Sequence record: OZ035757.1 | Length of the DNA stretch: 64,000 bases | From: Felixounavirus LF82P9 | Reading direction: 5' to 3' (one strand) | Shown here: positions 4,741-6,516 of the stretch, one piece after another | How the letters are laid out: every line of letters begins with the position of its first letter | Position numbering within the stretch: the stretch's first letter is position 1 | Program-made: the position numbers and the translations under genes | The notes under the pieces: generated by a model | The model's input: only the letters and a program-made list of their open reading frames with translations | Told to the model about the DNA's origin: nothing | The model's database searches: none

Positions 4741-5100
4741 CCATCCTTCCATACCCTACCTTACCACACCCAACCATACCTAACCAAACTACACCATACA
4801 ATACCTTATTAAAAGACCCTCTTAAAGACCTTTTAAAAAGGTAAGTCTCATTTTAATGTAGCTGAGACTAACTACCCGCACCGAACCTCACCTGACCTGA
4901 CCGCGCCATACCTAACCGCGCTTTACCACACCTCACTTAAAAACCCTATGAGATACTCTATCGAATATAATTTAAAGACTCTTAAGTGATGTAATCGAAT
5001 TTTTATGTAGCTCCGATTAACTACCCGCACTTTACCAAACCTCACCCTACCCTACCAGACCTTACCTAACCGCGCCGTACCTCATTAAAAGACCCTCTTA
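4741..5100. repeat. composite intergenic element, copy A (C/A-skewed tracts plus conserved palindrome-hairpin core)
   Basis: C/A-rich tracts (taccNcacc-like) flank ~72-nt core containing palindrome ACCTTTTAAAAAGGT and hairpin agtctca/tgagact; core recurs almost identically at 6343-6416. Confidence 0.6.
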
Positions 5101-5133
5101 AAGACCTTTTAAAAAGGAGCCTCCGAAGAGGCT
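5101..5133 (-). terminator. rho-independent terminator (minus strand)
   Basis: On minus strand: stem agcctc/gaggct with 4-nt loop, then TTTTT; directly downstream of the gene ending at 5145. Confidence 0.55.
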
Positions 5134-5144
5134 ACCTAGTCAAC

Positions 5145-5585
5145 TTAGAAAGGTTTTCTACGTTGCTTGTTAATGTTAGCTTTCATAGCAGCTAAATGGT
5201 TTTGCTGTTCAATCAGTCGTGAACGTTCTTGATGACTAAGTGCCATAGTATTCACATTCTCAATCGCTTGAGTGGCTTGCTTTAAAGCACGACCAATCTT
5301 ACCAGACATTTTACGTTTTGCAATAGTTGCTTGATGCTTAGGTTCAACCACACGATAACCAACACCCATTGAAGCAACCAGATAAATCTTCTCTTCTTTA
5401 AGAAGCTTTTCAATAAACTTCTCAAGTCGGTTTAGACGTGTAAGTGCATAAGCCTTCATTTCATCTTCGTACTTAACAATGTCACCTTGATAAGTTGGCT
5501 TCACAATACCTAAGAAGGTGTCCATCTCAGAATGTGATACAGTGTCACCGTAACTAAACTTTGCTGCTAATGCTTTTGTATTCAT
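5145..5585 (-). CDS. hypothetical protein
   Basis: ORF track; no recognisable motif. Confidence 0.5.
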   Translation of the reverse strand: MNTKALAAKFSYGDTVSHSEMDTFLGIVKPTYQGDIVKYEDEMKAYALTRLNRLEKFIEKLLKEEKIYLVASMGVGYRVVEPKHQATIAKRKMSGKIGRALKQATQAIENVNTMALSHQERSRLIEQQNHLAAMKANINKQRRKPF

Positions 5586-5587
5586 AA

Positions 5588-6190
5588 TTAAACGTTACCT
5601 TCTGAAATAACTTCTACAGAAAAACGACCAAAGCGTGGACGCCAATCACCTACACCACAAAGGTTGCCAGCATTTTCCAGAACCATCAGGAGTTCCTCTC
5701 GGGTAATTTGCTCTTCATCGAACATCAAACCAAACTCTACAGACCAATCACGGAAGATTGGACGGTAGCTCATAACTCGTGCTGTACCAATCTTAACAGA
5801 TTTAGCATAGATAAAATCTGGATTCTTAGCAAGTTCTTGTGGGTTTGCTGGGCAGTTCTTGATAGTCATTGGGAAGACTACATCTGTCAGCATAATGGCT
5901 CGGTCAATTACCTTACCAAGTTTGTTGAGTTTTGCACCAGACTTGATACAAGCCTCAATCATCTCACCGTTCATAACAAAACCTAGCTGCTCATCGTAGT
6001 AACAAGAAGTTACCAGTTGGCTTTCTGCTAAGAGCGCATAGTCTTCGTCAGTCTTTTTACGTTTACTGGACAGAGACTTGTGATATTTCGTCAGAGGGTT
6101 TAATGGGTCTGACAACGTATCGTTATGGCTCAAGAAAGGACGAGTACCAGTGATTTTGATATTTAACAGTTTCATAGCATTTAGCTCCAC
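5588..6190 (-). CDS. hypothetical protein
   Basis: ORF track; 2-nt gap to neighbouring gene. Confidence 0.5.
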
Positions 6191-6249
6191 ACTTTAGTTG
6201 ATTGTTAAGTTGTTTGTAAAGAACCCTCAACAGAAGACTCTTTAGAAAC

Positions 6250-6516
6250 TTGGTAGATTTTTAACGTGGATACTACCATCCACCCATACCGTGCCACACC
6301 ACACCGGACCGTACCATGCCCAACCCTACTACACCAGACCTTATTAAAAGACCCTCTCCAAAGACCTTTTAAAAAGGTAAGTCTCATTTTAATGTAGCTG
6401 AGACTAACTACCCATACATTACCGCACCATATTATACCCTACCCCACCATACTTCACTGCACCGAGCCACGCATTACATCACTTAAAAACCCTTTTCAAA
6501 GACTCTTAAGTGATGC
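6250..6516. repeat. composite intergenic element, copy B
   Basis: Same architecture as 4741-5100: C/A-skewed tracts, near-identical 72-nt core (6343-6416), cacttaaaaaccc...ctcttaagtgatg block. Confidence 0.6.

Follow-up and report, generated by a model that had tools for sequence, protein, structure and literature searches.

Viral Interference Programmable Repeat (VIPR) is an RNA-guided DNA silencing system that was first described in 2026 (bioRxiv 10.64898/2026.04.26.720920,.720927) and that relies on Vipr, a minimal RAMP-fold protein with an RRM core, a G-loop, a thumb and residues for holding G1, G2 and Y3, and on guide RNAs named vrRNAs. The vrRNAs are about 100 nt long and consist of 9 to 16 YNNGG repeats, in which GGY is kept and NN is hypervariable, and of an invariant tail, which in the clade of phage SUSP1 folds into a pseudoknot. 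According to the same preprints, one Vipr protomer per repeat sequesters GGY, the bases of which are held individually in the cryo-electron microscopy (cryo-EM) structure, while NN pairs with a double-stranded DNA (dsDNA) target with one base skipped per unit, and the resulting gapped R-loop 'triplex' represses transcription. Targeting does not need a protospacer adjacent motif and is possible on either strand, and the skipped base is generally codon position 3 in coding targets (bioRxiv preprints). In SUSP1, one vrRNA lies upstream and three lie downstream of the genes vipr and vap1; small RNA (sRNA) sequencing revealed these vrRNAs as discrete ~100-nt species, which are recovered together with Vipr on purification and act in trans, and vap1 enhances protection (bioRxiv preprints). 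Within the SUSP1 clade, 18 of the 20 guides with identifiable targets match an Escherichia coli phage satellite carrying tape-measure and baseplate genes (bioRxiv preprints). Here we analyse a locus of this kind at positions 4669-6573 of a 64,000-nt stretch from Felixounavirus LF82P9 (OZ035757.1; hereafter the window), in which a preliminary description, made from the sequence alone, had seen a duplicated intergenic element with strand-skewed tracts around a palindrome and hairpin core.

Five vrRNAs around vipr and vap1

Region 4669-6573 almost certainly corresponds to a complete VIPR locus of type II in a Felix O1-like phage. Read along the minus strand from 6573 to 4669, it comprises a promoter, the vrRNAs U1 and U2, vipr, vap1, a terminator and the vrRNAs D1, D2 and D3. 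The product of vipr (5588..6175, minus strand), a 195-aa RAMP-like protein that by orthology to SUSP1 would polymerise on GGY repeats, is identical to Protein Data Bank (PDB) chain 36pp_D, 'SUSP1 Vipr protein', at 190 of 195 residues over its full length (E = 1.5e-127). The residues named from cryo-EM, H17, K33, R39, E71, M72, K82, G87, K88, R138, C173, D177, W178 and R179, can all be read in the Vipr of the window; the exception is T175, position 175 being V both here and in the aligned SUSP1 chain. The product of vap1 (vipr-accessory protein; 5145..5585, minus strand; 146 aa) is identical at 145 of 146 residues to that of the SUSP1 gene located directly downstream of vipr. A Pfam search of the flanking proteins returned no family for vipr or vap1; Vipr matches phrog_4652, and the flanking proteins match only PHROGs of 'unknown function'. 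Judging by these identities, the locus is the direct orthologue of an experimentally characterised and already known system.

The strand skew noted in the preliminary description is real, as the plus strand of the tracts holds 0-8 G against 26-30 C per 60 nt, and its motifs do occur in both intergenic regions, but the element is not present in two copies: there are five units, two of which (U1 and U2) precede vipr and vap1 and three of which (D1 to D3) follow them. On the minus strand, each skewed tract consists of 12 in-register GGY-NN pentamers with a strict 5-nt periodicity. When the window was scanned for at least five ACC in register over 12 pentamers, all occurrences fell into five clusters inside both intergenic regions, and the motif of the opposite strand never exceeded 3 of 12 anywhere; the periodicity of the tracts is thus far beyond chance. 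The further copies that the preliminary description had proposed to look for were sought in the window, and none lies beyond both intergenic regions. All on the minus strand, the guides occupy 6409..6468 in U1 (NN = TC GC GA AT GG AG AT AT GC AA AT TA), 6281..6340 in U2 (NN = CT GT AG TG AT AC CC GT GT AC AT TG), 5022..5081 in D1 (NN = AC GC TA AA CT AG AG GA TT AA GC TA), 4873..4932 in D2 (NN = GT AA GC TA AT GC CA CA GA TC GC TA) and 4746..4805 in D3 (NN = AT AT GT TT TA AT TG GT AA AG AT AG). Each guide is preceded by a short leader and followed by a ~40-nt conserved 3' tail with a predicted hairpin/pseudoknot cap. By orthology, these vrRNAs would correspond to the ~100-nt RNAs that co-purify with Vipr in SUSP1.

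To assess conservation, we compared 10 Ounavirinae loci containing 42 vrRNAs, of which 33 are unique. In the unique vrRNAs, positions 1 to 3 of the unit carry 1.04, 1.82 and 1.10 bits of information, and positions 4 and 5 carry 0.08 and 0.09 bits. GGY is therefore kept while NN is near-random, although Vipr is 98-100% identical across those phages. Units 11 and 12 are nearly constant (GGTAT, then GGGTA, GGGTG or GGAAG), so that the variable guide is effectively made of units 1-10, and in U1, U2 and D2 they mismatch the predicted targets (e.g. 6409-6418, 4873-4882). This pattern suggests that units 11 and 12 may behave as part of the handle, the natural guide in this clade being about 10 units long although 12 protomers would bind. 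Close relatives have between 3 and 5 vrRNAs per locus, and U1 and U2 of the window are identical to their counterparts in wV8 and bumzen whereas D1 and D2 differ. That loci share some vrRNA cassettes but not others indicates cassette-wise exchange.

Compared to the type II VIPR locus of SUSP1, the locus of the window encodes a Vipr and a Vap1 that are 97% and 99% identical, has an identical gene order, with the DNA ligase gene and a homologue of wV8 gene 93 on either side, and shares the promoter, the vap1 terminator, the 12-unit GGY-NN guides, both tail types and the kind of target, an E. coli satellite with tape-measure and baseplate genes. Unlike SUSP1, which has one upstream vrRNA and four in total and which is a Suspvirus, the window phage is a Felixounavirus with two upstream vrRNAs and five in total, and the NN sequences of all its guides differ from those of the SUSP1 guides compared here. 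What the present analysis adds is a precise map of the five guides, each with a computationally assigned target. If the mechanism described for SUSP1 also operates here, one Vipr protomer would bind each repeat and sequester its GGY triplet, leaving two N bases per unit exposed; the exposed dinucleotides would pair with a dsDNA target while skipping every third base (NNxNNx...), and the gapped R-loop formed in this way would block transcription, an effect that vap1 would enhance.

Predicted guide targets in E. coli satellites

When the locus was compared by BLAST with 5,426 complete E. coli genomes, 100 chromosomes showed a vrRNA-like match, located in unannotated DNA. Most of the regions that we fetched (designated below by L numbers) are ~11-kb islands, of which L123 and L138 are degraded by insertion sequence elements, and they are integrated at ymdF/wrbA, at yciI/tonB, at the DUF72 gene near yecN or at lafU/dinB. 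Intact satellites code for a small recombinase, one vrRNA, a gene annotated as 'transposase', a tape-measure protein, a baseplate protein and a large serine recombinase, and most of them also for an HNH endonuclease; none carries vipr. These islands agree with the satellite described in the preprints, and they presumably rely on the Vipr of a helper phage.

Units 1-10 of each guide were scanned against both strands of 12 E. coli satellite loci amounting to 307 kb. D2 matched perfectly (20/20) inside the large serine recombinase gene, on the sense strand (L135:20388(-)), and U1 matched the tape-measure gene at 19/20 (L124:26440 and L136:17946). D1 matched at 19/20 (22/24 over all units) in the intergenic region upstream of the 'transposase' gene (L124:23832-23866). 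U2 matched the antisense strand of the tape-measure gene at 18/20 (L135:17653 and L140:17490), a score that is marginal on its own, and D3 matched just upstream of the first satellite hypothetical gene at 18/20 (21/24) in L124, L127, L138 and L140 and at 18/20 (19/24) at the homologous site of L125. Targets were thus found on both strands, and the skipped base was computed to be codon position 3 in all three targets located in coding sequences. Scores of 18-20/20 were obtained only with a skip of one base, and with skips of 0, 2 or 3 bases the score never exceeded 16. In 200 shuffles of the unit order, the best score ranged from 14 to 17 in 199 cases and reached 18 in one. No self-target was found in the window, which leaves ~25 kb of the genome outside it and in which the best matches covered 14-16 of 20-22 positions (at most 75%); likewise, the satellite-encoded vrRNAs gave only background scores against the window. 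Since all five guides point at one ~11-kb family of E. coli satellites, the VIPR locus is most likely, as far as these matches can tell, a weapon of the phage against a satellite that parasitises it.

Several observations weigh against this interpretation. The mechanism in this phage is carried over from SUSP1 by orthology, and the preprints contain no description of the route by which individual vrRNAs would be produced, whether from their own promoters, by termination or by processing. U1 might be partly decayed, given that four of its units have a degenerate GGY (AGT, AGT, AAT, TGT). The scanned satellites were only 12 and had been chosen for carrying vrRNA-like sequence, which leaves room for targets elsewhere. 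Scans of IMG/VR for the exact 10-unit NNx patterns of U2 and D2 returned no match, and the targets of these two guides turned up only after more satellite variants were fetched. Finally, U2 and D3 reach only 18/20, a score that was also attained by one null shuffle; these two guides were assigned because their matches are located inside the satellite and recur at homologous sites.

The satellite islands correspond to L124:19216-30036 and to equivalent regions in L125-L128, L135-L137, L139 and L140, and they occupy at least four integration sites. Their single vrRNA has a type-B-like tail (see below), followed in L123-L127 by a canonical terminator. With a skip of 1 nt, the guide of the L124 satellite finds 19/22 matching positions in another island (L123:13861).

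Tails, leaders and transcription signals

The ~72-nt core of the preliminary description was found again as near-identical copies at 4806-4878 and 6343-6416 (69 identical positions of 73/74), each of which proved to be the conserved 3' tail of one RNA joined to the leader of the next. All tails and leaders are given here on the minus strand. The type A tail of U1 (6371..6408) contains a putative pseudoknot GTAG/CTAC and the hairpin AGTCTCA-12-TGAGACT, which is followed by UACCUUUUU; the hairpin, which had been noted, occurs at 4844 and 6380, and nowhere else. D2 has the same type of tail (4835..4872), which together with the next leader makes up the core at 4806-4878. The tail of D1 (4984..5021, type A') retains the architecture of type A with a stem TAATCG.../...CGATTA, thereby supplying compensatory changes relative to type A. 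The type B tail of U2 (6241..6280), which is of the same type as the tail of SUSP1 vrRNA1, folds into a predicted H-type pseudoknot with GTGGAT/ATCCAC as stem 1 and TGGTAG/CTACCA as stem 2; in the type B tail of D3 (4706..4745), the corresponding stems are AAGG/CCTT and TGGCAG/CTGCCA. Compensatory changes affect three pairs of the type A hairpin and two pairs in each pseudoknot stem of type B, four in total, while the 4-bp pseudoknot helix GTAG/CTAC of type A is invariant and hence uninformative for covariation. The covariation score of the tails was reached by none of 500 shuffles and collapsed once the partners were slid.

The core had also been regarded as a possible terminator. What stands of this proposal is that a hairpin and U-run come ~38 nt after the final repeat, at about the distance expected for the 3' end of a ~100-nt vrRNA; the hairpin belongs to a conserved tail with covarying stems, which does not fit a terminator pure and simple accompanied by regulatory sites. 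With 7 bp (of which 3 are G-C), a 12-nt loop and a U-run that begins 4 nt past the stem, the tail-A hairpin falls outside the criteria of the terminator scan; only the hairpin at 5118-5133 passes. From its position, it is plausible that the tail-A hairpin helps 3'-end formation.

Two types of leaders precede the guides. Leader type 1 (AAAAGGTCTTTGGAGAGGGTCTTTTAATAA) extends from the U1 tail to the U2 guide (6341..6370) and is also present before D3 (4806..4834). Together with the upstream CCTTTTT, it accounts for the palindrome ACCTTTTAAAAAGGT of the preliminary description, which is present at 4828 and 6364 only and which is a 7+1+7 inverted repeat and not a strict palindrome. Leader type 1 is highly conserved in the 10 loci; compensatory changes in the leader hairpins were looked for in these loci and none was found, and the predicted stem is broken by a variant GGGTG for GGGTC, for which reason we make no structural claim. 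Leader hairpin type 2 (CATCACTTAAGAGTC...GGGTTTTTAAGTGATG) precedes U1, directly 5' of the guide (6477..6515), and D2, where it occupies the interval from the D1 tail to the D2 guide with an expanded loop (4934..4991). It corresponds to the second conserved block that had been pointed out, with CACTTAAAAACCC at 4934 and 6480 and CTCTTAAGTGATG at 4979 and 6503. On direct reading, its stem relies on G-U pairs that are present only in the minus-sense RNA, so that this hairpin is RNA-specific. The specificity of the element for the transcribed strand was upheld. CCUUUUU and then leader type 1 come after every type A tail hairpin and after the vap1 terminator hairpin, and this module does not come after the type B tails of U2 and D3.

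A sigma-70-type promoter, TTGACA-16-TATACT, matches the consensus at 11 of 12 positions just upstream of the first vrRNA (6546..6573, minus strand) and is probably where the vrRNA(U1,U2)-vipr-vap1 transcript starts. It is kept in 9 of 10 related VIPR loci and in one vipr-less relative. After vap1, the terminator scan identified an intrinsic terminator made of the hairpin AGCCTCTTCGGAGGCT and a U-run (5118..5133, minus strand), with leader type 1 and D1 directly after it; this hairpin is kept in all 10 related loci. Gene order, promoter and terminator are also found in SUSP1, wV8, Moogle, Mushroom and others. At the downstream border, a 19-bp imperfect hairpin followed by a T-run (4669..4716, minus strand) embeds the promoter-like sequence TTGACA-17-TATTTT in its loop and 3' arm and would form the boundary at which the VIPR locus ends and the next gene (4241-4624) starts. 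This terminator/promoter combination (4669-4716) is kept in all relatives examined. The best sigma-70 promoter candidate in leader type 1, TTAAAA-17-TTTAAT, does not have the A that is critical at the second position of the -10 hexamer, was not reported by the scan and was rejected; no convincing internal promoter was found in the locus.

Both intergenic regions belong to a minus-strand block downstream of the DNA ligase gene, adjoined by genes for a thymidylate synthase, a dihydrofolate reductase and a helix-turn-helix regulator. The DNA ligase gene is separated from the VIPR promoter by a small open reading frame (ORF) for a hydrophobic product of 48 aa (6580-6726(-), MFSTVILFILVVFVLSYVASKLLDTSFAMGVLFTIFCFVTHIAIRTFL; phrog_22006, unknown function). 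The 3.5 kb around the element are matched by 257 phage records; with few exceptions, these come from Felix O1-like myoviruses, and the closest is Felixounavirus LF82P1 (97.5%). In GenBank, wV8 (2009, 'DR_4') and several Danish coliphages carry pieces of vrRNA tails and leaders as bare 'repeat_region' features to which no function is attached (L130:1559-1616 and 2952-3009 in wV8; L001:3888-3934; L002:3758-3799 and 5013-5065).

Part of what the preliminary description proposed for the GT-rich tracts, namely that they are protein-binding sites or part of an sRNA, agrees with the SUSP1 vrRNAs, which were seen by sRNA sequencing and by co-purification with Vipr; by orthology, the tracts would be binding sites within small RNAs. 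A different view is that the region is mere transcription punctuation and the tracts are binding sites of a regulator that acts on transcription or translation of the neighbouring genes, for instance a TRAP-like attenuator (TRAP, trp RNA-binding attenuation protein). In the Bacillus trp leader, an oligomer of TRAP reads ~11 (G/U)AG triplets that are 2-3 variable bases apart in otherwise unstructured RNA, and the ~12 triplets spaced 2 nt apart in each tract resemble such a site. The strong promoter upstream of U1, the canonical terminator after vap1, the tail-A hairpin with the ensuing U-run and the position of U1 and U2 in the would-be 5' leader of vipr speak for punctuation as well. We nevertheless consider it very improbable, since three of the five units are downstream of the operon terminator, NN is hypervariable although the phages compared have flanking genes that are 98-100% identical, and the NN strings match satellite DNA at 18-20/20 only with a one-base skip, which a cis-regulatory site does not predict; moreover, the orthologous RNAs of SUSP1 are discrete, ~100 nt long, co-purify with Vipr and act in trans. 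TRAP forms a closed ring that attenuates in cis and ignores its spacers, whereas VIPR would form an open helical filament with informative spacers acting in trans on DNA, and no relationship to TRAP was detected at the sequence level, there being no Pfam TrpBP match among the flanking proteins.

Even less credence can be given to two other explanations. The tracts could be a functionless, duplicated miniature inverted-repeat transposable element (MITE) or recombination-prone repeat, a variant of which, a mobile miniature element, had been put forward from the sequence. Such an origin would be in keeping with the variation from 3 to 5 units per locus among close relatives, with the conserved leaders and tails as potential recombination substrates and with the GenBank annotation of some parts as nothing but 'repeat_region'. 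However, no transposase is annotated at the syntenic locus of related phages, no dispersed copies were found, the units of the window being present only beside vipr, and the association of protein and array recurs in unrelated phages, the Vipr family being encoded in 23 of 29 array loci (see below); the copies differ at the target-encoding NN, and selection is evident from the retention of GGY while NN varies and from the compensatory changes in the tail stems. Judged by dispersal, linkage to vipr and conservation, the mobile element was abandoned. The tracts could also act as DNA or as structured nucleic acid, either as an R-loop-primed origin, as an array of two-tetrad G-quadruplexes of the form (GGN3)n or, on the opposite strand, as a Rho-utilisation site directed against antisense transcription. 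The non-template strand is indeed G-rich downstream of a strong promoter and near replication genes (ligase and polymerase), the 12 GG runs of a tract could give three G-quadruplex units, and the plus strand is C-rich and G-poor over ~60 nt. None of these ideas accounts for the pyrimidine that is kept at position 3, for the near-randomness of NN, for the conserved tails with their pseudoknots, for the association with Vipr or for the satellite matches, and cryo-EM shows the GGY bases individually held by Vipr, so that this explanation is as hard to credit as the MITE. Coding repeats were rejected because of stops in all frames, and Chi-like or RecA-preferred GT-rich DNA, an early hypothesis drawn from the sequence only, was dropped once the protein had been identified.

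VIPR-like arrays in other viruses and relation of VIPR to CRISPR-Cas

An Rfam search of 4500-6800 with E up to 10 returned only chance-level matches to small nucleolar RNAs and sRNAs, a full-text literature search for GGTNN-type strings brought up nothing beyond noise from primers and barcodes, and other direct repeats, but not these elements, are listed in the paper on the Felix O1 genome. A blind scan of IMG/VR for six in-register GGT triplets, (GGTNN)x6, revealed, besides trivial microsatellites, many unrelated viral contigs in which heterogeneous (GGTNN) tracts, 9-19 units long, form arrays. When the ORFs surrounding the arrays in 29 loci (the window and 28 IMG/VR loci) were compared all against all, one dominant family of ~200-aa proteins emerged, which is encoded in 23 of the 29 loci and which includes the product of window ORF 5588-6190(-), located between both intergenic regions. 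The PDB name 'SUSP1 Vipr protein' led, via a literature search, to the two 2026 preprints, both from one group.

Larger arrays are found in the unrelated IMG/VR contigs L024, L034, L047, L053, L098 and L106 as well as in L038 and L026, and a Vipr homologue is encoded in each. L038 carries at least 12 tracts of 12-19 units (2217-3406), each ending in GGTAA GGAAT GGTTT and separated by spacers of ~15 nt, and L026 carries seven minus-strand tracts only 8 nt apart (3396-3843, reverse-complement coordinates). In their organisation, they resemble the further VIPR array architectures to which the preprints refer. In six loci with GGTNN arrays (L015, L016, L017, L064, L083 and L117), no Vipr homologue was found within the fetched stretch; the gene may be located further out, its product may have diverged past recognition, or the arrays may be vrRNA-only elements. 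Distant Vipr homologues (23-43% identity), all annotated as hypothetical proteins, are encoded by Pseudomonas phages Medea1 and LESphi2, Mycobacterium phage LittleE, Gordonia phages Trine, UmaThurman and Pipp, and Listonella phage phiHSIC.

Salmonella phage SP3_SHan-2021 (MW296865.1 ~4450-4740; L141:2380-2670) is a Felixounavirus without vipr or vap1. Between its ligase gene and the gene that follows, this phage retains a single orphan vrRNA-like tract, which is ~10 units long and ends in a D3-type tail, as well as the type 2 leader hairpin and the VIPR promoter. As the array query matches 159 records of the phage collection and Vipr at 90% identity or more occurs in 117, orphan vrRNAs may be common. 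The orphan vrRNAs of vipr-less Felixounaviruses could be live guides that are loaded by the Vipr of a co-infecting relative. The leaders, for their part, could serve as a processing site, a terminator or a weak promoter and could drive the shuffling of guide cassettes between phages and satellites. We regard it as possible, though rather doubtful, that leaders type 1 (CCUUUUUAAAAGGUCUUUAAGAGGGUCUUUUAAURA) and type 2 (CAYCACUUAAGAGUC...GGGUUUUUAAGUGAUG) are cassette boundaries and that, at the same time, orphan vrRNAs are live guides using Vipr in trans. If this were true, the leaders would be the functional counterpart of CRISPR repeats in a system without known acquisition machinery.

VIPR resembles class 1 CRISPR-Cas systems, with their backbone of Cas7, a RAMP protein (Cascade, Csm/Cmr), in that a RAMP-fold protein polymerises along the guide RNA, a thumb flips out bases periodically, a conserved handle caps the variable guide and foreign DNA is recognised under RNA guidance (bioRxiv preprints). 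Unlike in CRISPR-Cas, the VIPR guide is non-contiguous, with two paired and three sequestered bases per 5 nt and with one third of the target bases skipped; type II VIPR involves no nuclease and is encoded by the phage itself. VIPR loci are reported to be without CRISPR repeat-spacer arrays and cas genes (bioRxiv preprints, not a search of this window).

VIPR is thus a recently described form of RNA-guided DNA recognition with a non-contiguous "2 of 5" guide code, and its small RAMP-like Vipr has been proposed to predate CRISPR. The locus described here adds no new kind of system, but it can be annotated precisely, with its five guides, tails, vipr, vap1, promoter and terminator, and the preliminary description, for which no tools had been used, had picked out a real VIPR array from the sequence alone. 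The guide repertoire of this locus predicts a conflict between Felixounavirus LF82P9 and a specific family of E. coli satellites.

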